Source: Candidatus Poribacteria bacterium (GTDB lineage Bacteria > Poribacteria > WGA-4E > JAJDTR01). Taken from it: DNA of 64,000 nucleotides. The translations under genes and the position numbers were made by a program. The DNA is taken from positions 512,519 through 576,518 of the forward strand of contig CBDDPW010000022.1 of the NCBI GenBank assembly GCA_965232535.1, in the 5' to 3' direction. The notes below the pieces were generated by a model. That model did no database searches, was not told where the DNA came from, and saw nothing but the letters and a program-made list of their open reading frames with translations. This document shows, one piece after another, positions 3,723 through 21,825 of the stretch (positions within the stretch are counted from its first letter, which is position 1; each line of letters opens with the position of its first letter).

Positions 3723-3889
3723 AAAGGATTGTCTGAATCGCGGATTAAGAGGATTACGCAGATTACGCGGATTAAAACCAGAGCACATTTTTGCGTCGGC
3801 GGTGTATTATGTTGGTGGGAAGGGAGAGTGGTAGAAGAGCTTGTCTGAATCGCGGATTAAACAGATTAGGCAGATTACGCGGATTAAAT
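3672..3889. repeat. tandem duplication (2 x ~106-112 bp) spanning the 3' end of the methyltransferase gene
   Basis: 3672-3777 and 3784-3889 are ~85% identical (..ttttggcgtcggcggtgtatt..gtctgaatcgcggattaa..gattacgcggattaaa). Each copy carries internal GATTA(C/G)GC sub-repeats. Copy 1 contains the MTase stop codon. Confidence 0.75.
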
Positions 3890-4061
3890 ACGTGCTTTGC
3901 TCGGTGCACGGGAATAGTCCGTGGTATCCTCCGAACCGTGCAAATCCGCGATTTGGGTTTTTATACAAACACTCATGAGTTGGGTTTCACGAAGTTCAAC
4001 CCAACCTACGGACCGAGAAAGAGGGTATCTAACCTTAACCAAAACATACGGAGAATAAGAC

Positions 4062-5569: not shown

Positions 5570-5738
5570 CCAATGGTGCTAGTATATGTAGTATTTAAAT
5601 CATAAATGACATACTATATACTGACACGATGATGTGCGATTATGCGCGGTTGACAAATGTTGCGCCTACCTGATCTGCTAACAACCTAGATATAGTATGT
5701 CATTGAAAATCATGTACCAATTAACTAGCACCAAAGGT
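5569..5738 (+). mobile_element. MITE-like ~170-bp element, copy 2, inserted inside the type IIG RM gene
   Basis: Identical to copy 3 except for 1-2 nt. Flanked by a TATTA direct repeat (5564-5568 and 5739-5743). Removing the element plus one TATTA restores the in-frame sequence GSYYTPREIV. The element supplies an in-frame ATG (5697) and a TTGACA box. Confidence 0.85.
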
Positions 5739-8084
5739 TATTACACGCCGCGCGAGATTGTCAACTACATGACCGATGAATCGCTGATTGCGTACCTGAA
5801 GAATGAATTCATCGCCTATCGTGAATCCGAAAGTGCATTCGCTCCCGCTACGCCGCCCTCACAGATAGATTTCAGCGGACAGACAGAACCCATACAGACT
5901 CAGCTTGATATGGGTACGGTAGTCCTATCCAATGAACAAAAAGAGGCGATAGAGAGCGATCTCCGCGCGCTGATTTCGTACAAAGGTCAGCCGCGCAAAT
6001 TCACTACAGGCGAAACGCAAACCCTGATAAAAGCCATTGACGGGCTAAAGGTTCTCGACCCGGCGTGCGGTTCGGGCGCATTTCCGATGGGCGTACTGCA
6101 AAAACTGGTGTTCGTTCTGGGAAGGCTAGACCCGCGCAACGAGGAGTGGAGACAGCGGCAGATTGACAAAGTTCGACACACCATTAAAACTGCCGAAGAG
6201 ATTGAAGATAGCACGGTACGTGAAAATACTATCCGTGATCTTGAACGCGAAATTGACAACATCAACGACGCCTTCGAGCGGAATGAACTCGACTACGGAC
6301 GCAAACTCTACCTAATTGAAAACTGCATCTACGGCGTGGACATCCAACCCATCGCCGTCCAAATCTCTAAACTCCGCTTCTTCATCTCGCTCGTCGTCGA
6401 TCAGAAGATTGATAGAGAGCGCGAAAATCTCGGCGTGCGTCCCCTGCCCAATTTGGAAACAAAGTTTGTGGCGTCGGACGCCCTAATTGATGTGGAAAAG
6501 CCTACCCAAATCGAGATTCGCAACCCGCACGTTGTGCGTAAAGAGAAGGAATTATCGGAGGTGCGTCGGAAACACTTTACCGCTCGGACGCCCCCAACGA
6601 AGAAAAAGTATCGAGATTTGGACACCGCTCTCCGCTCCGAACTCAGCGAGTTGCTCAAACGCGACGGTTTCCCCGATGACACGACCGAAAAAATCGCATA
6701 TTGGGATCCTTACGACCAGAATACATGCACAGATTGGTTTGATCCGGAATGGATGTTCAATACTAAGAACGGGTTTGATGTAGTGATTGGTAACCCCCCT
6801 TATGTTCAATTACAAAAAAACGGCAGTAAATTAGGGCGTTTGTATGAACCGTGCAATTTTGACAGTTTCACGAAGACAGGGGATATTTACTGTCTGTTCT
6901 ATGAGAAAGCGAATCAGTTGTCAAGAGACGGTGGACATGTCTGTTTTATCACATCCAACAAATGGCTGCTCACCGCATATGGGAAAGCGTTGCGAGATTA
7001 CCTTGTAAGACAAACCCAACCTGTTCAACTACTGGACATGGGACCGGGTGTGTTTGACGCGACTGTGGATACCAACATCCTACTGTTTCAAAACACGGCG
7101 CGCGATCTTCGCGCGACGCTCAGAGCAACAACCATCCGAGCCGACTTTGACGCACATACTGATAACATCGCCCAATATATGGGCAATAACGGTGTGGCGA
7201 TGGAACTACCCCCCAAAGGCAAGCCGTGGACAATCTGCTCTCCAGCTGGACTTGCCCTGAGATACAAGATAGAAGACGTTGGCATACCACTGAAAAAGTG
7301 GGATGCAAAAATCTACTACGGAATAAAAACAGGCTGCAACGAAGCGTTTTTCATAGACGAAGTCAAGCGAGAAGAATTGGTGAAGCAAGACCCGAAATCA
7401 GTCGAAATCATCAAACCACTTCTGCGTGGGCGCGACCTTAAACGCTACCATGTCCATCGGTCACAGTTGTATATGCTAGCAACCGGTTACGATTTAGACA
7501 TTCCAACTAAGTATCCCGCCGTCTACAATCATCTCCAAACATTGGGAAGCCAAATAGAATTGGGGAAGATGAAGGTAAGAGGCAAAGGGCTATTCAATAG
7601 AGATGATCAGGGAGAGAATTGGTGGAACCTCAGAGCTTGTGCATACTATTCCGCGTTTGAAAAAGAGAAGATTATTTATCCCAACATGACTAAGTTTCTA
7701 CCATTCGTTTACGACGTGAGGGGGTTTTATACTAATGATAAGAGTTTTATCATTACAAGCGGAAACTATCTGAAATATCTTACAGGCTATTTTAACTCAA
7801 GAATCGCAGCAAGATGGGTTCGCGAAAACTGCCCGGAATTACAAGGTGGGACGAGAGAATTGAGAAAAGTATTTTTTGAGAATATCCCCATTCCCCGTGT
7901 CACAGAAGCGAACCAACATCTTGTCGCGACGATTGAAGAGCGAGTTGACGGAATTCTCGCCGCTAAACGTACAAATCCAGATGAGGACACAACCGCGCTT
8001 GAAAAAGAGATTGATGAGATAGTATACTCATTGTACGATTTATCGCCTGAAGAAATTGCGATTGTGGAAGAAGCGGTGGATTGA
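5697..8084 (+). CDS. C-terminal fragment of type IIG RM / PglX-like enzyme: complete gamma-class N6-adenine DNA methyltransferase domain plus target-recognition region. The ORF begins at a MITE-provided ATG
   Basis: Carries motif X (GYYTPREIV), motif I (LDPACGSGAFPMGVL) and motif IV (VIGNPPYV). About 450 aa of C-terminal TRD-like sequence follow. It is continuous in frame with the upstream fragment if the MITE is removed. Confidence 0.75.
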   Translation: MSLKIMYQLTSTKGYYTPREIVNYMTDESLIAYLKNEFIAYRESESAFAPATPPSQIDFSGQTEPIQTQLDMGTVVLSNEQKEAIESDLRALISYKGQPRKFTTGETQTLIKAIDGLKVLDPACGSGAFPMGVLQKLVFVLGRLDPRNEEWRQRQIDKVRHTIKTAEEIEDSTVRENTIRDLEREIDNINDAFERNELDYGRKLYLIENCIYGVDIQPIAVQISKLRFFISLVVDQKIDRERENLGVRPLPNLETKFVASDALIDVEKPTQIEIRNPHVVRKEKELSEVRRKHFTARTPPTKKKYRDLDTALRSELSELLKRDGFPDDTTEKIAYWDPYDQNTCTDWFDPEWMFNTKNGFDVVIGNPPYVQLQKNGSKLGRLYEPCNFDSFTKTGDIYCLFYEKANQLSRDGGHVCFITSNKWLLTAYGKALRDYLVRQTQPVQLLDMGPGVFDATVDTNILLFQNTARDLRATLRATTIRADFDAHTDNIAQYMGNNGVAMELPPKGKPWTICSPAGLALRYKIEDVGIPLKKWDAKIYYGIKTGCNEAFFIDEVKREELVKQDPKSVEIIKPLLRGRDLKRYHVHRSQLYMLATGYDLDIPTKYPAVYNHLQTLGSQIELGKMKVRGKGLFNRDDQGENWWNLRACAYYSAFEKEKIIYPNMTKFLPFVYDVRGFYTNDKSFIITSGNYLKYLTGYFNSRIAARWVRENCPELQGGTRELRKVFFENIPIPRVTEANQHLVATIEERVDGILAAKRTNPDEDTTALEKEIDEIVYSLYDLSPEEIAIVEEAVD

Positions 8085-8455: not shown

Positions 8456-11098
8456 ATGAATGAAAGAGAATATGCAGGGGCTAAGTGGTGGAAATTTGAT
8501 TTTCATACTCACACACCTGCCTCGGAAGACTTCAGTCAAAGCGGAGTTTCACCTGAATCTTGGTTGAAAGCATTCATGGATGAGGGAATTGATTGTGTCG
8601 CGATTACCGACCATAACAGCGGCGGCTGGATAGACCACTTGAAGAATAAGTTGCAGGAATTGGCCAGCAGCCAGTCCGATTGGTACCGACCCCTGTATCT
8701 GTTTCCGGGGGTGGAAATCTCAGCAAATGGCAACGTGCATATTTTAGCGATATTTGGACATGAGAAGCATAAGAGCGATATCGATCAGTTGCTTGGTGCG
8801 GTTAGTTATTCGGGGACAAAGGGCAAAAGCGATGCAGTAACGAACACGACCGTTACCGAGGTCGTCAATGCAGTTGCGGAACAGGGAGGTATCCCTATTC
8901 CGGCGCATGCCGACACTGCCAATGGGTTGTTTAAACTGCAAGGACTAACATTGGACAATGCGATGGATAATCCCAACCTCTACGCGATGGAGTTATGCGA
9001 CACCGATTACCAAAAGCCCCAACTGTATACTGACATGAAGGTGCGGTGGACTGAAGTCCGAGGCTCCGATACGCATAACTTCAGCGACAGTGCATTTGGT
9101 ACGTTTACCTGGATTAAAATGGATAAACCTTCCATTAACGGATTGAAGCTAGCGCTGATTGATGGAACCGTCTCCGTTAATCGCAAAATGCACGCTGACC
9201 CCAACCGGCACGCGCCGCACTATCTAGAGGAACTCAAAATATGCAAAGCAAAACACATTGGCCGTACAGAGCCCCTCAATTGCAGATTTAGCCCCTTTCT
9301 TAACGCTATAATTGGTGGACGCGGAAGCGGTAAGTCCACATTGGTGGAATTCATGCGCCTAAGCCTGCAGCGCGTTGCGGAACTTCCGGAGTCACTAGAA
9401 AAAGGAACCCGTCAGTATTTTGATGTGAAGGAGGTTAACAGCTTACTGATTGAGAACAGCACGATTTCGCTAATCTATCGCAAAGGTGAGGTGCGGTACC
9501 GGTTGAAATGGTCAGCCGAAGCGGGTAGCACCTCTTTGGAGGAGGAAAAAGATGGCATTTGGAAACCTAGCCCCGGAGAAATACATTCGCTATTTCCTGT
9601 ACGAATTTATAGCCAGAGGCAAATCCTTGAACTAGCAAATGATACAGGCGCGCTGATTCAAGTTATTGATGAAGCGCCCGAAGTTGACTCTTGGACGTTT
9701 AAGACACAACACACGGATTTGGTCAACCAGTACAAACAGATTGAAGGTGAACAAAGAGAACTGAAGCATAAAATTTCCCACGAAAATCGGCTACAAGGAG
9801 AGTCAAACGACCTCGCACGGCAGATTGAGCAAATAGAAAAATCTGGGCACGAGGCTGTACTGCGAAATTTTAGTAAACGGCAGAGGCAGTTAAGCGAGAT
9901 TGACAGCTTGGAAGGAAAATGGAAAGAGATGAGTTGTCGTCTTGCTGACACGCTGCATGACATTACCCCGGCGCATTTCGATAAGCAGCATTTTGCCGAC
10001 GATACCGATATTCTTTCGGTTTTACAAAAAACAAACGAAAAATGGCAAACGATTCAAGACCAATTAGACCAATTGGTACAAGACGCTCAATTATCTATTC
10101 ACAACTGGAATACTGAAAAGAGTGCTGCAGACTGGATGCGACGCCTCAAGACAGATATGAAAAAGTACGAGTCTTTGTCCTCGGAAATGAAACAGCATAA
10201 TATTGATCCACAGCAGTACCCTTGGCTATTGACGAAACAGAAAAGTATACAGACGGAATTGAATCTCATTGCCGATTATCGTTCGCAGTGGCAAGAATTG
10301 GAACATGCGAAGAAACAAGTGTACAACCAGATAAATACAAACAGAACGAAGCTCTCGCAAAAAAGGAAAGAATTTCTAACGCGTGTTCTACGCGATAACT
10401 CTTCGGTCAGCATTGAAGTCAATCCGTTTGGCGAAGATTGGGGCGGCGAACACGGTATAGAAGAAGAGATCCGTAGAATATTACAATGCCAAGATGGCTT
10501 CGAAAAAGATATTGATGCCCTGAAAGAGGTTTATCTACGGGACGGTGGTGGAAAGGTTGAAGAACTCAAAACGGCAGTTAAAGATATTCGCGATGAAAAG
10601 CTGGCTGCCAAAGATAACCGCTTTACCCGACGTTTGCAGAACTTACCTCAAGAATCAATGATTGATTTCATCTTGTGGTTTCCCGAGGATGATTTGAAAG
10701 TTACCTTTGGCCCCAGAAATCAGCACATAGAACAGAGTTCTCCGGGACAGAAAACCGCCGCGTTGTTAGCATTTATCCTTTCCTACGGAGATGAGCCACT
10801 GTTGCTCGATCAACCTGAAGATGATTTGGATAACGAATTAATCTACAAGTTGGTTGTCAAACAGTTGCGAGGAATGAAAAGCAAAAGGCAGATTATCATC
10901 GTTACGCACAACGCCAACATAGTAGTCAACGGCGATGCGGAGATGGTTCTACCGCTTCAGGTCGGCGGTGGTGAAACCCACGTAAGGCGGGCTGCGAGCA
11001 TTCAGGAAAAAGATGTCCGGGAATCCATATGCGAAATTCTGGAAGGGGGGCGACACGCATTTGAAGAGCGCTATAAACGTATTCATTTGGGAACTTAA
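8456..11098 (+). CDS. PHP-domain phosphoesterase fused to Rad50/SbcC/SMC-like ABC ATPase (880 aa; Ppl-like defence protein)
   Basis: The N-terminus (WWKFDFHTHTPASEDF...VAITDHN...PAHADT) is a PHP metal-dependent phosphoesterase fold. A Walker A follows (IIGGRGSGKSTLVEFM). Then comes a ~400-aa coiled-coil-like insertion. The C-terminus has an ABC signature-like SSPGQKTAALLAFIL, a Walker B/D-loop LLLDQPEDDLD and an H-loop IIIVTHNAN. RBS GGAGGT lies upstream. Confidence 0.8.
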   Translation: MNEREYAGAKWWKFDFHTHTPASEDFSQSGVSPESWLKAFMDEGIDCVAITDHNSGGWIDHLKNKLQELASSQSDWYRPLYLFPGVEISANGNVHILAIFGHEKHKSDIDQLLGAVSYSGTKGKSDAVTNTTVTEVVNAVAEQGGIPIPAHADTANGLFKLQGLTLDNAMDNPNLYAMELCDTDYQKPQLYTDMKVRWTEVRGSDTHNFSDSAFGTFTWIKMDKPSINGLKLALIDGTVSVNRKMHADPNRHAPHYLEELKICKAKHIGRTEPLNCRFSPFLNAIIGGRGSGKSTLVEFMRLSLQRVAELPESLEKGTRQYFDVKEVNSLLIENSTISLIYRKGEVRYRLKWSAEAGSTSLEEEKDGIWKPSPGEIHSLFPVRIYSQRQILELANDTGALIQVIDEAPEVDSWTFKTQHTDLVNQYKQIEGEQRELKHKISHENRLQGESNDLARQIEQIEKSGHEAVLRNFSKRQRQLSEIDSLEGKWKEMSCRLADTLHDITPAHFDKQHFADDTDILSVLQKTNEKWQTIQDQLDQLVQDAQLSIHNWNTEKSAADWMRRLKTDMKKYESLSSEMKQHNIDPQQYPWLLTKQKSIQTELNLIADYRSQWQELEHAKKQVYNQINTNRTKLSQKRKEFLTRVLRDNSSVSIEVNPFGEDWGGEHGIEEEIRRILQCQDGFEKDIDALKEVYLRDGGGKVEELKTAVKDIRDEKLAAKDNRFTRRLQNLPQESMIDFILWFPEDDLKVTFGPRNQHIEQSSPGQKTAALLAFILSYGDEPLLLDQPEDDLDNELIYKLVVKQLRGMKSKRQIIIVTHNANIVVNGDAEMVLPLQVGGGETHVRRAASIQEKDVRESICEILEGGRHAFEERYKRIHLGT

Positions 11099-11100
11099 CC

Positions 11101-12321
11101 ATGTTTGACAGCCTGACTGAACTCCGTGAGAAAATATTCCTGGGTGAGGACTCAATGATTGAGTTCAAGAGAGAGTTGCCCGAACGAAAAGAACTCTCCG
11201 ATGAGATGGCGGCTTTCGCTAACGACCGTGGCGGGGTGATACTCATCGGTGTTGAAGATAACGGCGGCATCGTCGGGATTGATCGCGAGAGCTTGGAAAG
11301 GGTTGAGAAAACGGTGGTTGAAATATGCCAAGACAGCATCGATCCGCCGGTTCACATTGTGACGGAGAAGTTGTGCATTGACGAGAAGAACCTGATAAAA
11401 ATTGATGTGTCTCGCACCCCGTTTGTGCATCGATCAGCCAACGGTTATTTCATCCGTCAGGGCAGCACCAAGAGAGAGATGACCACCGAGCAGTTAGGGC
11501 GATTGTTACAAAATCGTTCGCAAGTGCATCGTATGGCTTTTGATGAACAGTTCGTGCCGAACACTCACAGAGACACATTGAGCAGATCGCTTTATCAGCG
11601 GTTTATAACCCCTGGCGTGGCTGAAGGCGAAGAGGAGAACCTGCTCCTTAAGCGGCGTTTGCTTGTCAAGGAAGGCGAGAATTACCGAGCATCCGTCGCC
11701 GGGGTGTTGATGTGTCATCACAAACCCGATGATTACCTCTATAATAGTTTCATTCAGGCGGTCTATTACAATGGCGTGGAAAAGGATGCCAACTACCAGA
11801 TTGACGCCAAGGATTTCAAGGGACCGCTGGATGAACAAATTGTGGACGCCTTCAAATTCGTTGAAAAGCACAACCAAGTGTCCGCGCGAAAGGAGATTGG
11901 CAGAATCGAGCGGCCGCAGTACAGCATGAGAGCCGTTTTTGAGGCAGTCGTTAATGCCGTCGTACACAGAGATTACTCAAAAGCTGGCTCAAAAATTCGA
12001 CTGTTTATGTTTGCGGATCGGCTGGAGCTTTATTCGCCCGGTGCGTTGGGGTACACCTTGACTGTGGAAGATTTGCCCTATAACCAAGCGACCCGTAATG
12101 AGCTCCTTGCCCGGCTACTTTCGGAAACGACGCTTGAGGACCATCTGGCAACTAAGACAACCCGGCGCCACTTTTTGGAACGCCGCGGCGAGGGCGTCGG
12201 TATCATTCTGAACGAGAGCGAGAGACTGAGCGGTAAAACGCCGGTATACGAGGTGTTTGGCGAAGAATTACGCTTGACAATCTTCGCGGCGGAATCTTTG
12301 CAAGACGACATTGCTGTCTGA
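11101..12321 (+). CDS. AlbA_2 (Schlafen-like divergent AAA) + HATPase_c_4 domain protein (putative DNA-binding / RecG-C-terminal-like ATPase)
   Basis: Starts 2 nt after the upstream stop, so it is translationally coupled. The N-terminus (IEFKREL..AFANDRGGVILIGVEDNGGIVGI) is an AlbA_2 fold. The C-terminus (AVVNAVVHRDYS...IRLFMFADRLELYSPG) is the HATPase-like module typical of this family. Confidence 0.8.
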   Translation: MFDSLTELREKIFLGEDSMIEFKRELPERKELSDEMAAFANDRGGVILIGVEDNGGIVGIDRESLERVEKTVVEICQDSIDPPVHIVTEKLCIDEKNLIKIDVSRTPFVHRSANGYFIRQGSTKREMTTEQLGRLLQNRSQVHRMAFDEQFVPNTHRDTLSRSLYQRFITPGVAEGEEENLLLKRRLLVKEGENYRASVAGVLMCHHKPDDYLYNSFIQAVYYNGVEKDANYQIDAKDFKGPLDEQIVDAFKFVEKHNQVSARKEIGRIERPQYSMRAVFEAVVNAVVHRDYSKAGSKIRLFMFADRLELYSPGALGYTLTVEDLPYNQATRNELLARLLSETTLEDHLATKTTRRHFLERRGEGVGIILNESERLSGKTPVYEVFGEELRLTIFAAESLQDDIAV

Positions 12322-12351
12322 ACTGTGATTTTTGTGATGAAGTGATGGACT

Positions 12352-12738
12352 ATGATTAAAGAGGAGTATAAGTATTCGGCGTTGACGGAAAAAGTGATTG
12401 GCTGTGCCATGCGGGTACATTCTAAGTTAGGCAGTGGATTTCAGGAAGTAATCTATCAGAGGGCATTAGCGCTCGAAATGGCTGCTCAAAAAATTCATTT
12501 CAGTCGTGAGCATGAGATGCCTGTCTACTACAGAGAGCAACAAATTGGCACGCGAAGAGCCGATTTCTTGATAGAGGGCGTTGTCTCCGTCGAATTGAAG
12601 GCTATTATCCAACTGGATGACATCCACCTGGCGCAAGCAATCAACTATCTGGAGGCGTACAATCTGGAGGTTGGGTTGCTAATCAACTTTGGCGCACGAA
12701 GCCTTGAATTCAGAAGAGTTACGAACACAAAACTTTAA
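12352..12738 (+). CDS. GxxExxY family protein (small PD-(D/E)xK-like nuclease-fold protein)
   Basis: 128-aa ORF with KVIGCAMRVHSKLGSGFQEVIYQRAL...ADFLIEGVVSVELKAI, the hallmark GxxExxY motif region. Confidence 0.75.
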   Translation: MIKEEYKYSALTEKVIGCAMRVHSKLGSGFQEVIYQRALALEMAAQKIHFSREHEMPVYYREQQIGTRRADFLIEGVVSVELKAIIQLDDIHLAQAINYLEAYNLEVGLLINFGARSLEFRRVTNTKL

Positions 12739-12801
12739 TCAACAAAATCATGGCAATCACCATAATCTCATGAATCACAGTTCAGACAAAGGGAAAAAAC
12801 C

Positions 12802-15800
12802 ATGGCAGAAAACACCTCACTATTCCCTTCCGGTATTCGTGATAACCGCCATCGCGGCACGGTCGGCAGATTCCTGCAGGACTATATCAAAGACGGATCG
12901 TCACTCTCTATCGTCTCAGCCTACTTCACGATTTACGCCTTCGACGCCTTGAGATCGTCTTTGCTCGGAATCAATGACCTTCGCTTCCTCTTCGGCGAAC
13001 CGCGATTCATCAACCGGTTAGATCCCGAAAGAACGGAAAAGAAATCATTCATCATAGACAGCGGCGGCTTGCAGTTGACGAACCAGCTTGAACTCAAGCG
13101 GGTGGCAAGGGAATGCGCCGCGTGGATTGAAGACAAGGTCGAGATTCGCTCAATCCAAAAGGAAAACCTGCTGCACGGCAAGATGTACCACATCGACGAT
13201 ACCAACCGGGAACACGCGATTCTCGGTAGTTCCAACTTCACCGTGCGCGGCTTGGGATTGGGCGAAAGTGAAGGCAACATCGAACTCAATTTGAAGGTTG
13301 AGGACAACCGGGATGTTACCGACCTGAAACAATGGTTTAACGAACTGTGGTATGACGAGAAACAGGTCGTGGATGTTAAGGATGAAGTGTTGTCCTACCT
13401 TAATCAACTCTATGAGAATTACGCGCCGGAGTTCGTCTACTACAAGACGCTTTATCATCTCTTTGAGCGGTACTTGAGCGATCAGGAGGGGTGGGGCCTG
13501 CTGGACACACCGCCGCAACTCGTCGACACGCAAATCTGGAACGCGCTCTACGGTTTCCAGAAGGACGGCGTAAAAGGGGCAATCAACAAAATCCTGACGC
13601 ACAACGGCTGTATTATCGCAGACAGCGTCGGCTTGGGAAAGACATACGAAGCCCTTGCGGTGATAAAATACTTTGAACTGCGCAACGAAAACGTGCTGGT
13701 GCTATGTCCCAAGAAACTACGAGAGAACTGGACCATCTACCCTGCATATACGGGCAACACACTCAATCCCTTCCCAAATGACCGCTTCGGCTATACCGTT
13801 CTCTCGCATACTGACCTGAGCCGGGCGGACGGCATGTCGGGGGATGTGGATCTGTCGTCGTTCAATTGGGGTAATTACGGTCTGGTGGTTATTGACGAGT
13901 CGCACAATTTCCGAAACAACACCCCCGGAAAAAAAGATCGGGACGGCAACCTGATACGCTTGAGCCGCTACAAACGGCTGATGGATGACATTGTCAAGAG
14001 CGGCGTAAACACCAAGATGCTGTTGCTGTCCGCGACGCCGGTCAACAACGATCTACGCGATCTGCGCAACCAACTTTACTTTCTTACAGAGGAACGCGAC
14101 GACGCTTTCAAGGATTCACTCGGCGTCGCCAATCTGAGAGAAACCATCTCAAGCGCCCAAACCGCCTTCAACAAGTGGGCAAAGCAGGAGGGGACGCGCA
14201 GCAGCCAGAATCTGCTGGAAGAACTGAGTACCCACTTCTTCAGACTGCTTGACGGTTTGACCATCGCGCGGTCGCGGAAGCAAATTCAAAAATACTACCC
14301 CGACTCGATGAGAGAATTGGGCGGCTTCCCGAAACGCGGCAAGCCCGAATCCATCTATACCAAAATAGATCTCAAGGATGAGTTCCTGTCTTACGACGCG
14401 CTGAACGATGAGATTTCCGAGTATCAACTGTCGCTCTACAATCCGACCAAATATCTCCGACCCGAACACGAGTCCGAATACAACTTGGAGTTGGTAAAAA
14501 ACTTTACGCAGATTGACCGTGAGCACTTCCTGATTGGCATGATGAAGGTAAACTTCCTCAAACGCTTGGAGAGCTCCGTCCACTCCTTCAAGATTACGCT
14601 GGAGCGTACGCTTGATAAGATTGAAAAGTTGGAGGAACGTATCCGGCGGTTTCAGGAGTTCCGCGACGAAAACCCCGACCTCGATCCGGCGGAGATGGAG
14701 ATTGACGCCGGTGATGACGAAGACCTGCAAGCGGCTTTGGAGGTGGGGAAGAGCCTGAAATTCAAGACGGCGCACCTTGACGTGGAGCGGTGGTTGGAGG
14801 ATTTGCGGCAGGACAGAGAACAGCTTGAGCGCCCCCTCCGCTCCGCGGAAAAAGTCAACCCGGCCCGTGACGCAAAGCTCACCAGACTGAAGCAGTTGAT
14901 TCGAGAGAAAGTTAAGAATCCTTCAACCACCAAGCGTGGAACTCTAAATCGAAAGGTATTGGTATTCACCGCCTTTGCGGATATCGCCGACTACCTCTAC
15001 GGGGAGTTGCATGAATGGGCGCAGACGGAATTGGGCATCCGTACCGGGATGGTGACGGGGGGCACCATGCCCAACAGAACCACCCTGGGCAAAACCAACT
15101 TTGTCGACATCCTTACCAATTTCTCGCCAATTGCGAAGAACCGGAGCAGCGATAGGGAAATGCTTCAGGACGAGGAAATAGACCTACTCATCGGCACGGA
15201 TTGTATCTCGGAAGGCCAGAACCTGCAAGACTGCGACTACCTGATCAACTACGACATCCACTGGAATCCGGTGCGCATCATTCAGCGCTTCGGACGGATT
15301 GACCGTATTGGAAGCGTCAACAACCGAGTTCATTTAGTGAACTTCTGGCCCACCCCCGACCTGAATCGTTACATCAACCTGAAAAATCGGGTTGAAGCGC
15401 GGATGGCGCTGGTGGATGTCACGGCTGCGCAGGGAGATAACCTGCTTGACCCCGACGCGCTCTCCGAAGCCATTGAAGGGGACCTCAAATACCGCGACCA
15501 ACAACTCCTGAAACTTCAAGAGGAAATCCTTGACCTTGAAGAGTTTGACGAAAACGTCTCCCTCAACGAGTTCACGCTTGACGATTTCCGTATGGAACTC
15601 ATCAGGTACATCGAAAGCAACAAAAAGAAACTTGAGGAGGCGCCTTTCGGGCTTTACGCCGTTGTGCCTCCGCCCGCGGGAGATCCGATAATTAAACCCG
15701 GTGTTATCTTTTGCCTCAAACAGAAATCGAAGTCGGAGGAGAACGAAAAGTTGAATCCGACCCATCCCTACTTCCTGGTCTACGTTCGAGAGGAAGGCGT

Positions 15801-16206
15801 CGTGCGGTTTACGTTTGCCCAGCCGAAGCAAATCCTTGAGATGTACCGTCAATTGTGTGAGACGAAGACCAGTCCGTATGACGAACTCTGTGCGTTGTTC
15901 GATGAACACACGGAAAACGGCGCCGACATGTTGGGTTACGACAAACTACTCCGGGAAGCCGTTAAATCCATTTCGCATACCTACGAGAAGCGCGCTTTCA
16001 CCAATCTTCGATCCGGTCGCGGCGGGGTATTGCCGCTCGAATCCGAGCAGGTTGGCGACACGACGGATTTTGAGTTAGTGACGTGGTTGGTGATTAAGGA
16101 CGAATCGTCTCCCATGAAGCTGAATGAGCTTCTGGATCAAGTGACAGAGTACAATATTCATGGCGAAGTTGACACCGGTTCTCCGGTGGGGCGTGAAGAA
16201 TGGTAA
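12802..16206 (+). CDS. PLD-family nuclease / SNF2-family helicase fusion with MazE-like antitoxin C-terminal tail (1134 aa)
   Basis: N-terminal HKD motif (HGKMYHIDD...GSSNFT). SNF2 motifs: I GLGKTYEAL, II VIDESHNFRN, III LLSATPVNN, V/VI QRFGRIDRIGS. The last ~45 aa (PMKLNELLDQVTEYNIHGEVDTGSPVGREEW) closely resemble the C-terminal half of MazE/PemI antitoxins (..[28 protein letters not shown]). Confidence 0.85.
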   Translation: MAENTSLFPSGIRDNRHRGTVGRFLQDYIKDGSSLSIVSAYFTIYAFDALRSSLLGINDLRFLFGEPRFINRLDPERTEKKSFIIDSGGLQLTNQLELKRVARECAAWIEDKVEIRSIQKENLLHGKMYHIDDTNREHAILGSSNFTVRGLGLGESEGNIELNLKVEDNRDVTDLKQWFNELWYDEKQVVDVKDEVLSYLNQLYENYAPEFVYYKTLYHLFERYLSDQEGWGLLDTPPQLVDTQIWNALYGFQKDGVKGAINKILTHNGCIIADSVGLGKTYEALAVIKYFELRNENVLVLCPKKLRENWTIYPAYTGNTLNPFPNDRFGYTVLSHTDLSRADGMSGDVDLSSFNWGNYGLVVIDESHNFRNNTPGKKDRDGNLIRLSRYKRLMDDIVKSGVNTKMLLLSATPVNNDLRDLRNQLYFLTEERDDAFKDSLGVANLRETISSAQTAFNKWAKQEGTRSSQNLLEELSTHFFRLLDGLTIARSRKQIQKYYPDSMRELGGFPKRGKPESIYTKIDLKDEFLSYDALNDEISEYQLSLYNPTKYLRPEHESEYNLELVKNFTQIDREHFLIGMMKVNFLKRLESSVHSFKITLERTLDKIEKLEERIRRFQEFRDENPDLDPAEMEIDAGDDEDLQAALEVGKSLKFKTAHLDVERWLEDLRQDREQLERPLRSAEKVNPARDAKLTRLKQLIREKVKNPSTTKRGTLNRKVLVFTAFADIADYLYGELHEWAQTELGIRTGMVTGGTMPNRTTLGKTNFVDILTNFSPIAKNRSSDREMLQDEEIDLLIGTDCISEGQNLQDCDYLINYDIHWNPVRIIQRFGRIDRIGSVNNRVHLVNFWPTPDLNRYINLKNRVEARMALVDVTAAQGDNLLDPDALSEAIEGDLKYRDQQLLKLQEEILDLEEFDENVSLNEFTLDDFRMELIRYIESNKKKLEEAPFGLYAVVPPPAGDPIIKPGVIFCLKQKSKSEENEKLNPTHPYFLVYVREEGVVRFTFAQPKQILEMYRQLCETKTSPYDELCALFDEHTENGADMLGYDKLLREAVKSISHTYEKRAFTNLRSGRGGVLPLESEQVGDTTDFELVTWLVIKDESSPMKLNELLDQVTEYNIHGEVDTGSPVGREEW

Positions 16207-16553
16207 GACCAACCAACTACGTTCCACGACGCGGTGATGCGGTGTGGGTTGACTTCAATCCTCAAGCCGGGCACGAGCAAGCGGGACGGCGTCCTGCCGT
16301 TGTACTATCACCAGAGTCTTATAACAGCACCGTAGGTCTGGCAATTCTGTGCCCAATTACCAGTAGAGTGAAGGGGTATCCTTTTGAGGTTACAATCCCA
16401 GCCGGGCTAGATGTAAATGGGGTTATTCTTGCGGACCAACTCAAGAGCGCGGATTGGCGTGTGAGAAATGCGGAGTTGATATGTTCTTTGCCCATGACCA
16501 CAGTTGACACAGTTTTGCAGAGAGTCCAAACGCTCTTAGGAAGAGATGGTTAA
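16200..16553 (+). CDS. mazF: MazF/PemK-family type II toxin endoribonuclease
   Basis: Has VPRRGDAVWVDFNPQAGHEQAGRRPAVVLSP...LCPITS, the MazF/Kid signature. The ATG overlaps the helicase stop (ATGGTAA), the classic antitoxin-toxin overlap geometry. Confidence 0.85.
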   Translation: MVRPTNYVPRRGDAVWVDFNPQAGHEQAGRRPAVVLSPESYNSTVGLAILCPITSRVKGYPFEVTIPAGLDVNGVILADQLKSADWRVRNAELICSLPMTTVDTVLQRVQTLLGRDG

Positions 16554-16689
16554 CTATTTGGCTCAAGTAACAAATCAAGGTGTTTTCAAGGTCGTTGGGT
16601 GCGCCGACAGAACGTGCTGTGGTAGCATCTCATCATTCCTTTCGGGATGATTCATTCAGCAAGCACCACTCGTTTTTCAATCCTCGGTT

Positions 16690-17557
16690 AGCTTTGAAAA
16701 AGCGTTCCTTAATAGCGCGCCATTATCCCTGTCGGAATAATTCTTTCAGCAAGTAACTACCTCACATTTCCATGTAGGAGGGGCATCTTGCCCCGACGGT
16801 TTGTCTATAGCGCACATTATCCTTGGCGGAATAATTCTTTCAGCAAGTAACACTCATCTTCGGATCTATGACAGGCTTTGGGGAGGTGTTCCTTCGTAAA
16901 ATGCTTTTCACTCCAGAGGATCAAGCGACTGAATAGGGAGCGCGATAGTAAATCCTATGCAATGTCAATAGAATCGCGGTGTCTCCCAATCTCCGCGCTC
17001 CAGCGGAGCGCAATGTGTCTAGCGCATCATCAAGTGTCACTCATATTTCGTTCTATGGCTAGCTCTGAAAAAGTGTTACTTGGTAGCGCCCCATTATCCC
17101 TGTCAGGATAATTCATTCAGCAAGTAACACTCATTTTTCGCTCTATGACAGGTTTTGAAAAAGCGTTCCTTCGTAGAATGGTTTCACTCCAGAGGAGTGA
17201 GATGTCAATAGAACACGATTCCCCATCGCGTCTGCACTCCAGAGGAGTGCAATGTGGAGTGTTACTTGAGAGCGTGCCATTATCCCTGTCGCGATAATTC
17301 TTTCAGCAAGCAACACTCTTGTACCGCAAACTGTCAGTTTGTGATCACAATTCATCAGCGGTACACGTTCATTTTTCGCTCTATGGCTGGCTTTCCGAGA
17401 GTGTTACTTGATAGCGCGCCATTATCCCTGTCGGAATAATTCTTTCAGCAAGCAACACTCTTGTACCGCAAACTGTTAGTTTGCGATCGCAATCCATCAG
17501 CGGTACACGTTCATTTTTCGCTCTATGACTGGCTTTCCGAGAGTGTTACTTGATAGG
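16690..17557. repeat. array of nested palindromic REP/MITE-like units (family A: GTGTTACTTG-N-CCATTATCCCTGTCGGAATAAT-N-CAAGTAACAC), including two tandem ~142-bp composite units (17269-17556)
   Basis: Full family-A units occur at 17073-17130, 17269-17316 and 17401-17458. Degenerate copies lie at 16718-16776 and 16806-16853, and a truncated copy at 17540-17556. The units are interleaved with other palindromes (CACTCCAGAGGAGTG, CAAACTGTCAGTTTG, GCGCTCCAGCGGAGCGC). The spacers are not unique. Confidence 0.8.
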
Positions 17558-18547
17558 TCATAATTGGGTTAGCGAATCCGCTCCGCTTAGGAATCCTTCA
17601 ATCCACGGGCGTACCCGCTCGCGCATACCTCCAAGATCGTGGAGATGCAGCCACAGCGTCATGCCCCGGAGGTAGGCGAGCCTGAGATGTGCGGGGAGAG
17701 CGCTTCGTTCCTCTTCTGTTAAAGGACAAACCGCCTCGTAAGCTTCAAGGAAAATAGACTTTTGCTGGGGCGTTAAAGGAGTGTCTTGGTAAACGGAGGG
17801 GAAGAAGACCAAGGCGTACGCGAGATCGTAGGCACGGTTGGCGGGTCGTGCGGAGTCGAAATCCAAAATAGCTTTCACTTTTCCCTCGGCATCGAATTTC
17901 AAATTTTGTGCGCGATAGTCGCCGTGGATAATCCAGTCTCCGTCGTCCGACTCGGAGATTTCCGCCGCCAATCTTTCCACTTCCCCCATCCATTCATCAA
18001 TCCGATTCCGCGATACGGGATACCCGTCAGCTTCCGACGCGGCGATACGTATCCGTTCAAGCCGCAGGCGCAGCAGATTGATAACCTCCTCGTGCATAGG
18101 TAGCCACTTGAAGCCGACCGTTGGTTGAAAGCCCTGCAATTTTCTGTGAATGCGTCCCAGGGTTTCGCCCGCGGAATGCAGCGCTCCAATCGGTTGTGCA
18201 ACGTCGTAACCCTGTCCTTCCACGAATTCAAAAATCGCGTAGATGTCGCTTCCTTCAACCGATAGCGTGTCGCCGTCACGATTTCGGAGGAGGCGAGGGA
18301 TAGAGAACTCCGGTTTCCCAAGATATTCCTGTACCGCATGGGTGAAGGCGATGCGGGGGATGTGCATTGACGGGCTGAGGTCAAGGTCGGATGCAGGTTT
18401 ATAGCGTTTTAGAAACAGTTTTCCCTGATCGGTATTGAGCGCCATTGTGGAACTCATGGCGCCTGTACCTATCGGGACAGCGGTGGTAACCTCTAGTCCG
18501 TAGTGTTGGTGGATATTTTCCTCTTGCTGAGGCGAAAGCGATTCCAT
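17558..18547 (-). CDS. phosphotransferase-family (APH/choline-kinase fold) protein kinase-like enzyme
   Basis: 329-aa ORF with the catalytic HGDYRAQNLKFD (HGDxxxxN) and a downstream DFDSA (DxD) motif of aminoglycoside/homoserine-kinase-type phosphotransferases. Confidence 0.8.
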   Translation of the reverse strand: MESLSPQQEENIHQHYGLEVTTAVPIGTGAMSSTMALNTDQGKLFLKRYKPASDLDLSPSMHIPRIAFTHAVQEYLGKPEFSIPRLLRNRDGDTLSVEGSDIYAIFEFVEGQGYDVAQPIGALHSAGETLGRIHRKLQGFQPTVGFKWLPMHEEVINLLRLRLERIRIAASEADGYPVSRNRIDEWMGEVERLAAEISESDDGDWIIHGDYRAQNLKFDAEGKVKAILDFDSARPANRAYDLAYALVFFPSVYQDTPLTPQQKSIFLEAYEAVCPLTEEERSALPAHLRLAYLRGMTLWLHLHDLGGMRERVRPWIEGFLSGADSLTQL

Positions 18548-18667
18548 TTGTTTGGGCGTTTACCTCAATTTAACGACTTCTCGCGATATTTTCAATCGTA
18601 GCGAAATCGTTGTCAAGTTTTAATCGAGATTGATTTCGCTTTGGTGATGGAGATTGTGCCAAAAAGG

Positions 18668-18700
18668 AATGGTGAGCCGTGCCCACCCTACTACAAGCAA
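18668..18700. repeat. REP-B family variant (AATGGTGAGCCGTGCCCACCCTACTACAAG)
   Basis: Matches the AATGGTGGGCAGTGCCCACCCTACA.. consensus seen at 51893 and 59066. Confidence 0.5.
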
Positions 18701-18743
18701 TACGCATCTGATTTTGCATTGACAACTTTACACGTGTATAGTA

Positions 18744-18913
18744 ACCAATGGTGCTAGTATATGTAGTATTTAAATCATAAATGACATACTATATACTGAC
18801 ACGATGATGTGCGATTATGCGCGGTTGACAAATGTTGCGCCTACCTGACCTGCTAACAACCTAGATATAGTATGTCATTGAAAATCATGTACCAATTAAC
18901 TAGCACCAAAGGT
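18744..18913 (+). mobile_element. MITE-like ~170-bp element, copy 3
   Basis: Full-length copy flanked by a TAGTA direct repeat (18739-18743 and 18914-18918). Same TIRs as copies 1 and 2. Confidence 0.85.
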
Positions 18914-19117
18914 TAGTATGATAAGGAACGGACTAATAAGTTGCGGAGTGGATGCGCTACTCTTCAAATTGCCGATTTCCCGTGTTCGAACGGGGCGGCG
19001 CTTCGGCTTCGCGCGTACTTAAAAACCTGTTTGAAATGCCGTTTCGAGTAAAATCATGCGTGTCGAAACCGAGTTTTTTCTTCAAAACTTGGTTTCTTTC
19101 TCGCACAATTCTGTAGG

Positions 19118-19245
19118 ATCAACCGACTGAATAGGGAGGGCGATAGAGATCCTTCAACCGACTGAATAGGGAGGGATCAAGTGAGTGAATAGCGAACGCG
19201 ATAGAGATCCTTCAACCGACTGAATAGGGAGGGCGATAGAACTCC
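19118..19245. repeat. tandem ~35-bp repeats (TCAACCGACTGAATAGGGAGGGCGATAGAGATCCT), 3.5 units with one nested variant unit
   Basis: Head-to-tail units with no spacers. Related single units lie at 16919-16952, 19770-19838 and 27440-27476, and in reverse orientation at 33181-33198 and 58911-58975. Confidence 0.7.
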
Positions 19246-19699
19246 CCTGCGCACCTGACAAATCGTGCGTTTCAAACAGGCTTTAAGAGTGACCTTTATG
19301 GCGACGAACTTTTTTTCTGTTAACATCTTGTTCACATTTGCTTACCTATGGACCCACGCTATCAAAGGAAAGTACTGAATCAAACCATGTGAACACCCTC
19401 TTGAAATCATGCCTCCGTTCACATTTTTGTACCTATATTTTGGGGAATTTTACAAGAGAAATAGGTACAAGTTCAGCCGAAAACGTCCGAAATGGGTAGT
19501 AGATCGGCATTTTGTTCACATTTTCGAGTTCTTGAGCGACAGAACAAGGGGCAATCAAAGGACCGTGAACATCTACTGATTTTATACACCTTCCACTCCG
19601 ATGATGTTGTAGTGTGAAGGGCCCATGAAGCCGCAAACAGCCGCCATGGTTAGTTTGAACGCGAGGCCGATGAAGTGATTTCAGATGCTTTTTCCTATA

Positions 19700-20165
19700 G
19701 AGCATGCCATTATCCCTATTGGAATACTTCTTTCAGCAAGTAACTGCCTCACATTTCCATGTAGGAGGGAATCAAGCGAACGGATAGTGAGTAATCAAGT
19801 GAATGGATAACGAACGCGATAGAGCTCCCATAAAGATCTTCTTGCCCCGACGGTTTGTCTATAGCGCACATTATCCTTGGCGGAATGATTCCCTCATCAA
19901 GCGACACTCAACTCTCGCTCTGTGACTGGTTCCGAAAGAGTGTTACTTGGTAGCGTACCATTGTCCCTGTCGGAATAATTCTTTCCACAAGTAACATTCA
20001 CGGGTAAAGGTTCTTAGCCCCAGCGGGGCGGCAGGTGTATAGAAAACCGGAATCCCATAGAAACCTAGCCCCAGAGGGGCGACACGTGTATAGAAATCGA
20101 GAGTGTTACTTGAGAGCGTGCCATTATCCCTGTCGGGATAATTCTTTCAGCAAGTAACACATATG
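19700..20165. repeat. second cluster of family-A palindromic units, with a segmental duplicate of 16718-16860 and 42-bp tandem hairpin repeats
   Basis: 19706-19905 duplicates 16718-16860 with a ~70-bp insertion inside the GGGGCATCTTGCCCC hairpin. Family-A units lie at 19938-19997 and 20103-20160. Tandem TAGCCCCAG(C/A)GGGGCG..TGTATAGAAA units lie at 20015-20100. Confidence 0.7.
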
Positions 20166-20229
20166 CTACAATAATGAGGTTTGGTTTAGGCATTGCAAAG
20201 ACGGAAATTTTCTTGGTGTTTGTAAACCC

Positions 20230-20418
20230 GCTTGAGAGCGTCGTCCGGGTTATGCATGTTTTGTTCATTGGTGGACGCAAGCAAGATTCCCTTTCATGGG
20301 ATTTACTGCTTTGGTACCCCGTTTGGTAGACTAGAGATTCGAAGCATAACCCCGCCTGAACCGGTTTTGAAACCCATGTTGTATATTCCGAACCCTATCT
20401 CGGCAAGGAGAACTCGCC
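20230..20418 (+). ncRNA. candidate structured non-coding RNA in the IS110 5' region (possible bridge/seek RNA)
   Basis: Non-coding sequence directly upstream of the IS110 recombinase. It has a long-range 9-bp stem (CGGGTTATGC 20245-20255 / GCATAACCC 20344-20352) and further local hairpins. IS110-family recombinases are known to use an element-encoded guide RNA. No homology test was possible. Confidence 0.2.
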
Positions 20419-21825
20419 ATGAAAAGACGGCGTAAAACCGGCATTTCGAGAAAAGGACGATTCAAAGAACGTCCTCCTACCCAAGAGATTCAAGACGTGA
20501 ACGCTCTTGAACAAATAAATTATAACGCGGCAGGTCTCGACATCGGAGACGCTGAAATTTATGCCGCTGTCCCTGAAGGACGAGATAAAGACTGTGTGCG
20601 AGTCTTTAAGACTTTTACCGAAGACCTCCATCTCTTAGTGGATTGGTTACAGCATTGTTGCGTGACCACGGTGGCGATGGAATCAACAGGTATCTACTGG
20701 CTTCCAATCTATGAAATGCTTGAAGCACGCGGCTTTGAAGTGTATCTGGTGAATGCGCGTCATATTAAAAACGTTAGCGGTAAGAAGACTGACATCGAAG
20801 ATTGTCAATGGATACAGCAGTTGCATACCTATGGGCTGCTTTCGACTTCATTCCGCCCGGCTGAAGAGATTTGTGCCTCGCGCTCATTGGTGAGACATCG
20901 AGCCAATCTAATCGCTATGTGCTCGACACAAGTGCAGCATATGCAGAAGGCATTGCAACTGATGAATCTTAAGCTGACCAACGTCATCTCAGACATTACC
21001 GGTTTGACAGGCATGCGTATCATCAGAGACATCGTCAAGGGTGAACGCGATGCCCACCAATTGGCAGCCCATCGTGATGAGCGATGTACCAAAAGTGAAA
21101 AAGAGATTCGCAAATCTCTTGAGGGCAATTACAAGTCCGAACATGTGTTCGCCCTCAAGCAAGCGTTGCAAGCCTACGATTTTTATCAGCAGCAAATCAG
21201 CGATTGTGATGTAGAAATCGAAAAGTTTTATCAGAGGATTGAACCCCAGATTGACATCAAAGCGCACCCATTGCCGGAGAGTCAAAGAAAGCGGCGGCGT
21301 CCAAAGGGGAATGAGCCCTGTTTTAATTTGCGTCAACATCTGTATCAACTGAGCGGGGTAGATCTCACTCAGATTGAGGGAGTCAATGTGCTCAATGCAC
21401 AAGCGATATTGAGTGAAATCGGCATCGATATGAGCAAATGGCCTTCAGTCAAACATTTCACCTCCTGGCTGGGTTTATGTCCGAACAACCAAATCACGGG
21501 TGGCAAAGTGATGCAGCGTCAAACGCAGAAAAACAACAATCGTGCGGCACGCGCTCTGAGGCTGGCGGCGCAAGGCGTGTCAAATAGCAAAGGCGCCCTC
21601 GGCGGTTATTATCGTCGTCAGCGAGCGAGGCTCGGTCCTGCTCAAGCCATCACGGCAATCGCTCATAAACTCGCACGTATTATCTATGCCATGTTGAGAA
21701 ATCGGACGCCCTACCGTGAACCTCCTTCCGGCTACTATGAAGAACAGGCTCGCCAAAGGGCGGTTAAAAACCTGAAACGCAAAGCCAATCAGTTGGGATT
21801 TCATTTGGTTGCACAAGCAGCTTAA
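20419..21825 (+). CDS. IS110-family transposase/recombinase (DEDD N-terminal domain + Transposase_20 C-terminal domain)
   Basis: LDIGDAEIYAAV..., MESTGIYWLPIYEMLEARGFEVYLVNARHIKN and a C-terminal ...WLGLCPNNQITGGK... are IS110-family hallmarks. The N-terminal 30 aa of the 468-aa ORF are probably 5' UTR, so the true start is likely internal. Confidence 0.9.
   Translation: MKRRRKTGISRKGRFKERPPTQEIQDVNALEQINYNAAGLDIGDAEIYAAVPEGRDKDCVRVFKTFTEDLHLLVDWLQHCCVTTVAMESTGIYWLPIYEMLEARGFEVYLVNARHIKNVSGKKTDIEDCQWIQQLHTYGLLSTSFRPAEEICASRSLVRHRANLIAMCSTQVQHMQKALQLMNLKLTNVISDITGLTGMRIIRDIVKGERDAHQLAAHRDERCTKSEKEIRKSLEGNYKSEHVFALKQALQAYDFYQQQISDCDVEIEKFYQRIEPQIDIKAHPLPESQRKRRRPKGNEPCFNLRQHLYQLSGVDLTQIEGVNVLNAQAILSEIGIDMSKWPSVKHFTSWLGLCPNNQITGGKVMQRQTQKNNNRAARALRLAAQGVSNSKGALGGYYRRQRARLGPAQAITAIAHKLARIIYAMLRNRTPYREPPSGYYEEQARQRAVKNLKRKANQLGFHLVAQAA

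Follow-up and report, generated by a model that had tools for sequence, protein, structure and literature searches.

In canonical type II mazEF modules, the N-terminal domain of the antitoxin MazE binds operator DNA, while its disordered C-terminal region wraps across the toxin MazF, closing off the active site (PMC4803016). Here, we describe a 64,000-nucleotide stretch of a Candidatus Poribacteria genome (assembly GCA_965232535.1, contig CBDDPW010000022.1, positions 512,519 to 576,518 of the forward strand; hereafter the window), in which mazF lies directly downstream of a large HKD (PLD)–SNF2 helicase gene, and the helicase itself carries the C-terminal half of MazE as its own C-terminal tail. 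The Candidatus Poribacteria are sponge-associated bacteria. Compared with the canonical modules, as represented by E. coli mazEF and PDB 7d2n, this locus has the same MazF/PemK toxin, the same homology to the MazE C-terminus and the same ATGGTAA overlap. However, it lacks a separate antitoxin gene, an AbrB/SpoVT domain and a dedicated promoter/operator, and hence autoregulation; the putative antidote segment is instead the C-terminus of a 1134-residue nuclease–helicase. The reading best supported by these comparisons, to which we give a probability of roughly 0.7, is that the helicase itself serves as the antidote of MazF.

Each of the closest described systems shares part of this organization. 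In Myxococcus xanthus, the reported antidote of the solitary MazF-mx is MrpC, a transcription factor (reviewed in PMC4803016). As in the window, a mazF without a cognate mazE gene would be paired with an antidote that is a host protein with another main job; but MrpC is unrelated to MazE and encoded far off, whereas the true MazE fragment described here lies directly upstream of mazF and overlaps it. EcoprrI, a type Ic restriction enzyme, keeps the anticodon nuclease PrrC in a latent state, and activation of PrrC by a phage factor has been demonstrated (PMC1484252). The two cases are alike in placing an RNase toxin gene at a restriction-type locus (in one relative of our locus, L014, between helicase and methyltransferase genes) and in the proposed silencing of the RNase by a DNA-targeting enzyme, which points to a 'guard' triggered by an attack on the first line of defence. 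The likeness is nevertheless one of logic only: PrrC is an ABC-ATPase/anticodon nuclease, in contrast to the single-domain, 117-residue MazF, its silencing is non-covalent and involves no antitoxin-derived peptide, and phage activation of the system described here is purely hypothetical.

Type II Gabija (the GajB helicase with the MazF-like GajC), DarHTG and ietHAS are experimentally validated anti-phage operons recovered by domain-centric mining (PMC13069673). They likewise pair a helicase with a toxin of toxin–antitoxin type or a MazF-like nuclease; yet the helicase in those operons is separate and carries no antitoxin segment, and GajC is a split MazF-like domain with no MazE-derived partner. 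Single-chain fused toxin–antitoxins, such as CapRel (PMC9712102) and EzeT (PMC4803016), similarly place an antitoxin element inside a larger polypeptide, but there it is fused to its own toxin, whereas here it is joined to a third protein and the toxin remains separate. A full-text literature search found no description of a helicase–MazE tail fusion. The locus is a new arrangement of the known mazEF module, in which only the toxin-binding peptide of the antitoxin remains, attached to a defence helicase.

Organization of the helicase–mazF locus

The features of the locus, all on the + strand, are as follows:

12739..12766, +: sigma-70-like promoter candidate TCAACA-16-CATAAT, from a consensus scan only, just 5' of the helicase start
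12802-16206, +: HKD(PLD)-SNF2 helicase gene, 1134 residues, from the list of open reading frames (ORFs)
12802..16102, +: helicase body, codons 1-1100, delimited by Pfam, PADLOC and tail-less homologues of ~1100 residues
16103..16206, +: MazE-derived tail ESSPMKLNELLDQVTEYNIHGEVDTGSPVGREEW*, codons 1101-1134 plus stop (asterisks mark stops throughout), from a MazE hidden Markov model (HMM) and PDB matches
16200..16206, +: overlap of the mazF start and the helicase stop, ATGGTAA, the putatively inherited mazE–mazF translational-coupling junction
16200..16553, +: mazF, 117 residues, an intact endoribonuclease toxin by PemK_toxin and NCBIfam MazF

The junction sequence at 16195-16206 is gaa gaA TGG TAA, in which the mazF ATG (16200-16202) stands 4 nt 5' of the helicase TAA (16204-16206), so that the two genes overlap by 7 nt. 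mazF is a separate ORF in another frame than the helicase; toxin and antitoxin are not one polypeptide. For comparison, we assembled a set of MazF relatives comprising the best 80 genome loci (61-91% identity). The identical 7-nt overlap (ATGGTAA) is found in 48 of these 80 related mazEF loci and is common to every fused locus that retains mazF, which bears out the canonical antitoxin–toxin overlap claimed by the original prediction; we read ATGGTAA as the ancestral mazE–mazF junction. Promoter-like sites on the + strand were placed by the consensus scan at 12581 and 12739 only, both 5' of the helicase, and none was found in the helicase interior or ahead of mazF. No terminator-like site was found on this strand between helicase and mazF, and an Rfam scan of 12000-20500 recovered no RNA families. 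The candidate at 12739 is the likely source of a helicase–mazF transcript.

The helicase tail matches the C-terminal half of MazE

We built an HMM from 76 free-standing MazE proteins of these loci, each encoded 5' of a MazF relative. Among the 1889 six-frame ORFs that the window contains, it matched the helicase at E=4e-9 (33.6 bits) over profile positions 41-80 of 80, on LVIKDESSPMKLNELLDQVTEYNIHGEVDTGSPVGREEW, with the second-best ORF at E=1.5. Since the helicase alone is matched, the window is without another mazE, and the earlier claim that no free-standing mazE lies upstream in any frame extends to all six-frame ORFs across the 64 kb. Pfam and the MazE HMM detected no AbrB/MazE N-terminal domain, either in the helicase or elsewhere among the six-frame ORFs.

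Structural and sequence databases point in the same direction. The last 101 residues of the helicase gave three PDB matches only, all of them MazE-type antitoxins aligned to their last residue: 7d2n_E (E=0.0065) and E. coli MazE in 1mvf and 1ub4 (E=0.1). Two of these antitoxins are named MazE/PemI and the third is an AbrB/MazE/SpoVT-family protein; the 7d2n entry also contains the MazF chain that best matches the window MazF. With the 34-residue tail alone as query, a phmmer search of 1.84 billion representative proteins returned 29 matches at E<=0.001, nearly all of them the extreme C-terminus of small proteins, and the ~80-residue ones retrieved at full length are MazE-like. No other large enzyme was among the 29 matches. 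A word-indexed homologue search with a 51-residue tail returned nothing, the query being too short. Nearly all of the 80 MazF loci have a free-standing MazE of ~80 residues with an N-terminal QKWGNSLALRIPK domain, and the C-termini of these proteins, LLAQVTExNLHGEVDTGxxVGxExW*, match the helicase tail, in which the positions conserved in free MazE are all kept. We read the tail as the MazE linker plus the C-terminal toxin-binding segment, without the AbrB/SpoVT DNA-binding domain. The homology to the MazE C-terminus first suggested for this region is thus upheld by the HMM match (E=4e-9), while the ~45 residues assigned to it shrink to ~30-34 (16103-16203).

Several variants of the MazE peptide and its context were also observed. 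P0129 carries the C-terminal peptide duplicated in tandem, P0156 carries it on an N-terminal region without the usual QKWGNSLALRIPK motif, and P0130 and P0150 are short tail-only ORFs of 44-68 residues (44 in P0130, whose locus, L095, lacks an adjacent mazF). At 3879-4007 of L024, from the Poribacteria genome OZ244587.1, the MazE N-terminus reads RLGLDKYSLALRIPK in place of QKWGNSLALRIPK, so that its DNA-binding domain may be degenerate or its start misplaced; another SNF2-type helicase, 28% identical, lies ~1.7 kb 3'.

Sequence features of the helicase and the toxin

The helicase, with a mass of 125 kDa, contains the Pfam domains PLDc_2, SNF2-rel_dom and Helicase_C and matches the PADLOC 'HKD+Snf2' profile (C3a139) at E=3.8e-122, with residues 106-1097 aligned to positions 94-946 of 948. 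In an alignment of 62 homologues, H125, K127 and G142-S143-S144-N145 are invariant, as are G277-L278-G279-K280-T281 and D365-E366-S367-H368; we read the first group (H125/K127/G142-N145) as an HKD-type site, G277-T281 as helicase motif I and D365-H368 as motif II. The ratio of non-synonymous to synonymous substitution rates (dN/dS) in the helicase body is ~0.1. Assignment to DISARM was considered and rejected: the DrmD models NF038317 and NF038318 gave 144.6 and 95.3 bits, far below their cut-offs of 610 and 950, and none of the neighbours scanned with PADLOC matched DrmA or DrmB, DrmA appearing only as a weak secondary match of the helicase. A scan of metagenome contigs with the helicase C-terminus recovered one relative, at 46% identity.

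The toxin gene encodes a complete domain. MazF matches Pfam PemK_toxin at E=1.2e-26 over profile positions 1-109 of 109 and passes the NCBIfam MazF equivalog with 127.4 bits against a cut-off of 120; its best PDB match is the MazF of 7d28/7d2n (E=6e-38). It is 45% identical to E. coli MazF, and R31 and T54 are the counterparts of R29 and T52, the catalytic arginine and threonine of the E. coli toxin. The motifs AG(R/H)RPAVV and CPIT occur in every intact MazF of the fused clade, and dN/dS in mazF is ~0.06-0.26. An exact-sequence look-up of the window MazF returned no record, and a plasmid search recovered ordinary mazF genes only.

Conservation of the fused architecture and selection on the tail

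The same fused architecture is present in nine other independent assemblies (L001, L002, L004 and L085-L090), which come from several studies and several samples, have differing contig-name formats, and encode helicases 85-95% identical. One fused locus lies in the complete 6.63-Mb Candidatus Poribacteria chromosome OZ240209.1, which contributes to the best 80 MazF loci one locus, the fused one. All loci that extend far enough occupy the same chromosomal site, 5' of an opposite-strand APH-family gene and ligA.

Fused alleles differ in the helicase by a proportion of synonymous differences (pS) of 0.22-0.51, and over this range the frame and length of the tail are unchanged. The pooled ratio of non-synonymous to synonymous proportions (pN/pS) is 0.17 in the tail and in mazF alike, and 0.15 in the helicase. 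Counted by parsimony, 30 codons of the tail show 14 synonymous and 8 non-synonymous changes, against a neutral expectation of 76% non-synonymous (binomial p=8e-5), with the junction linker taking 3 of the 8 non-synonymous ones. The tail is under purifying selection in the helicase frame, and the abundance of synonymous changes speaks against constraint on the nucleotide sequence alone. The original prediction had allowed for a recent fusion through loss of a mazE start; this reading is rejected, as it does not fit the retention of tail frame, length and sequence over pS of ~0.2-0.5.

A census of the downstream genes covered a dozen loci with ~7 distinct fused alleles. mazF is intact in the window, L001/L002, L004, L086 and L088-L090. 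It is interrupted in L087 by a nonsense codon at position 16 (~5944-5946) and deleted from codon 4 on in L085 (5905-6277), where homology to the window stops at 16208, 2 nt past the helicase stop; in both, the helicase tail is intact. No mazF without the helicase tail was found among the sampled loci. The tail has been kept where mazF was lost, and never the reverse, as expected if the tail is the operative antidote, although with ~7 alleles this asymmetry is only suggestive. A comparison of the L085 and L087 tails for relaxed selection found few substitutions.

Breakpoint, tail-less alleles and origin of the fusion

Among the best 120 helicase homologues, 14 clusters at 85-95% identity are all exactly 1134 residues long and all carry the tail. 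The other homologues inspected, two truncated fragments excepted, are ~1090-1115 residues long and end a few residues past ...TTDFELVTWLVIK. The sequence through ...TDFELVTWLVIKD is ordinary helicase, common to tail-less homologues, and helicase homologues stop shortly after ...TDFELVTWLVIK. The tail is present in the 14 clusters and absent from the close relatives P0011, P0012 and P0015 (85-89% identity). Homology between fused and tail-less forms, in protein as in DNA, stops right after ...GTGATTAAGGACG at codon 1100; with the tail-less L003, the DNA homology stops at window position 16102, a clean breakpoint. The closest tail-less alleles terminate in ...WLVIKDAGE*, and past GTGATTAAGGACG they read GCA GGT GAG TGA (AGE*), where the fused allele reads GAA TCG TCT CCC ATG AAG.

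An unfused counterpart of the gene order is found in a more distant relative, L014 (228-7986), which encodes an HKD–SNF2 helicase, mazE, mazF and a 1236-residue type IIG-like methyltransferase. Its helicase, 67% identical, stops at 3698 (...WLVIR*) and is followed by a 67-nt spacer with a strong ribosome-binding site, mazE at 3766-4007 (80 residues) and mazF at 4001-4348. This order indicates that the helicase family and the mazEF family are neighbours in at least one other lineage. There, mazEF looks as though it sits between the genes of a putative helicase–methyltransferase pair, an arrangement that recalls prrC inside an hsd locus.

At the chromosomal site of the fused loci, L003 and L092 carry an alternative allele consisting of the helicase (AGE*), a Y1 transposase and APH, and in the outgroup L094 the helicase is likewise followed by a Y1 transposase. 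The feature that replaces the mazE'–mazF cassette in these loci, flanked likewise by the helicase 3' end and APH, is:

L003 9497-10054; L092 3744-4301; L094 6444-7004: 185-residue Y1-transposase-like gene of the tail-less loci

In a neighbour-joining tree, built with no bootstrap, the tail-less P0011 and P0012 are nested among fused alleles, and the cassette is on this basis polymorphic; it was probably exchanged by recombination between shared flanks.

We propose that a mazEF module beside a defence-island helicase was joined to it in frame, with removal of the last few helicase codons and the stop. Such a fusion would have left out the intergenic mazEF promoter/operator together with the first ~50 mazE codons, which encode the AbrB-type DNA-binding/dimerization domain. 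Either an in-place deletion or the insertion of a mazEF fragment truncated at its 5' end may have produced it. If MazF was active, presumably no junction would have been viable other than one in frame with an ORF that is expressed.

Proposed working of the helicase–MazF pair

That MazF is neutralized by the helicase, as the original prediction had suggested, fits the selection on the tail, the recurrence of the fusion in nine further assemblies and the presence of the tail wherever a sampled locus has an intact mazF. The part of MazE retained would be the disordered C-terminal segment, which in canonical MazE wraps the MazF dimer and blocks its RNA-binding groove. Helicase and mazF would be expressed from a single transcript, on which ribosomes that end the helicase at TAA could re-initiate at the ATG 4 nt upstream; with re-initiation at ATGGTAA, MazF would be made only alongside the antidote and no faster than it. 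One tail per MazF dimer would then give a latent helicase–MazF2 complex, and with MazE autoregulation presumably lost, the toxin level would follow helicase expression. The RNase might be freed by whatever removes the tail without MazF: cleavage of the tail by a protease, a helicase ORF that is lost or truncated, or an attack on the helicase by a phage factor. Binding, neutralization, translational coupling, stoichiometry and release trigger are all parts of the model that we infer from this arrangement.

Several points weigh against the helicase as antidote. The AlphaFold model of the full helicase, built with the 62 homologues, was too poor to be used, with a mean predicted local distance difference test score (pLDDT) of 47.9 and a predicted template modelling score (pTM) of 0.33. 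MazE is canonically a dimer whose N-terminal domain adds avidity, and binding to MazF may be weaker with only one tail, borne by a 125-kDa protein. Another mazE may act in trans, the search having covered the 64-kb window, and an in-frame GTG or TTG in ...LVTWLVIK... may serve as an internal start. Finally, the decay of mazF in two lineages shows that the module can at times be dispensed with, and the retention of the tail in these mazF-less lineages could reflect either recent loss or a MazF-independent function of the tail.

Beyond neutralization, the helicase–MazF pair could form an immune device with two layers, as PrrC and EcoprrI do. In such a device, the HKD–SNF2 restriction-like enzyme would hold a MazF dimer on its covalent C-terminal MazE peptide until the helicase either falls to a phage, which may disable, degrade or sequester it, or engages foreign DNA; the freed MazF would then shut down translation, leading to abortive infection. 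A truncating mutation anywhere in the 3.4-kb helicase gene would also remove the antidote, so that the toxin would police the integrity of the defence gene. This fuller scheme is rather improbable in our estimate.

Alternative explanations

The most probable of the rival explanations is that the locus is a decaying relic, in which the fusion is a neutral deletion scar, the tail has no function, and MazF is either inactive or checked by a MazE encoded elsewhere. In its favour, mazF has been lost twice among the ~7 distinct fused alleles (the L085 deletion and the L087 nonsense codon), complete mazEF loci with MazF ~73% identical occur in other Poribacteria genomes (L008, L013, L024), and the methyltransferase associated with the island is disrupted in the window, so that the island itself shows decay. 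Neutral decay is, however, at odds with a tail whose frame, length and sequence have persisted over pS of ~0.2-0.5 at a pN/pS of 0.17 (p=8e-5), and with a mazF that keeps its catalytic Arg and Thr at a dN/dS of 0.06-0.26; moreover, OZ240209.1 yields the fused locus only among the best 80 MazF loci. We therefore consider this explanation unlikely.

Slightly less probable still is an antitoxin that acts as a free mini-peptide of ~30-40 residues, made by initiation within the helicase frame (at the ATG at 16114 or an upstream GTG/TTG), with attachment to the helicase incidental. The ATG (M1105) does precede KLNELL... and has AAGGA 13 nt upstream, in-frame GTG/TTG codons lie within ...LVTWLVIK..., and short tail-only ORFs such as the 44-residue P0130 exist in the databases. 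Yet the Met codon at 16114 is ATA or ACA in 4 of the 7 distinct alleles, which rules out a conserved internal start there, and the GTG/TTG codons of LVTWLVIK are present equally in tail-less helicases. P0130, having no adjacent mazF, provides no evidence for a functional mini-antitoxin, and the consensus scan placed no + strand promoter-like site nearby.

More doubtful is the idea that the tail now serves the helicase in a role unconnected with MazF, perhaps as a regulatory or interaction peptide, with mazF as a passenger. The intact tails of both mazF-less lineages would agree with this. Against it, the residues kept in the tail include all those conserved among free MazE proteins, most fused alleles have an intact mazF that is under constraint, and the nesting of tail-less alleles among fused ones in the neighbour-joining tree (no bootstrap) indicates that the helicase works without the tail. 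An assembly or sequencing artefact, with a missed stop or frameshift hiding a normal mazE, can be dismissed for practical purposes, given the same 1134-residue ORF in nine further assemblies, the clean breakpoint and the absence of a MazE N-terminal domain in any frame.

Defence-island context

The helicase stands at the edge of a variable defence island, and the upstream gene set differs between strains. The genes recovered upstream of it in the window are:

4175-8084: type IIG-like methyltransferase, split, from PADLOC
8456-11098: Ppl-type PHP/ATPase protein, PADLOC Ppl 5.4e-150
11101-12321: Schlafen/AlbA_2-HATPase_c_4 protein, whose PADLOC match is to a pAgo-model region
12352-12738: PD-(D/E)XK (PDDEXK_3) protein, from Pfam only

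The methyltransferase is split into ORFs of 464 and 795 residues by ~115 nt (about 5615-5730) that interrupt ...ARKLTGS(F)YTPREI.... Residues 70-564 of the L014 orthologue align up to 5614, and residues 543-1231, in another frame, from 5730; the break is probably a small inactivating insertion.

On the other side of the helicase–mazF pair, the mazF–APH spacer (16580-17540) is a patchwork of direct repeats of ~90-140 nt without an Rfam match, including a 101-nt family present five times and a 142-nt tandem duplicate at 94% identity, with related copies in L004. In alleles without mazF, a Y1 (IS200/RAYT-like) transposase occupies the position of this repeat spacer. An IS110-family transposase (DEDD_Tnp_IS110 + Transposase_20) lies at 20419-21825, between APH and ligA; no gene was called in the corresponding interval of the syntenic L001, L003 and L004.

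Significance

Although toxin–antitoxin modules are common in defence islands, few links between infection and their release have been worked out. The locus described here places a putatively MazF-binding MazE peptide on a restriction-type nuclease–helicase, where it has been selected across species-level divergence. It also carries a warning for annotation: when a mazF looks "solitary", the antitoxin may be concealed in the 3' end of the gene before it. In biological terms, the pair may act as a restriction "guard", in abortive infection or in gene addiction. If the tail does neutralize MazF, the disordered C-terminus of MazE would by itself suffice as an antidote in vivo and be a portable module, and its attachment to the helicase would offer a simple route by which a DNA-targeting defence enzyme could come to control an RNA-targeting suicide effector. 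The locus would then also exemplify a toxin that enforces both the retention of a neighbouring gene and the integrity of its ORF.

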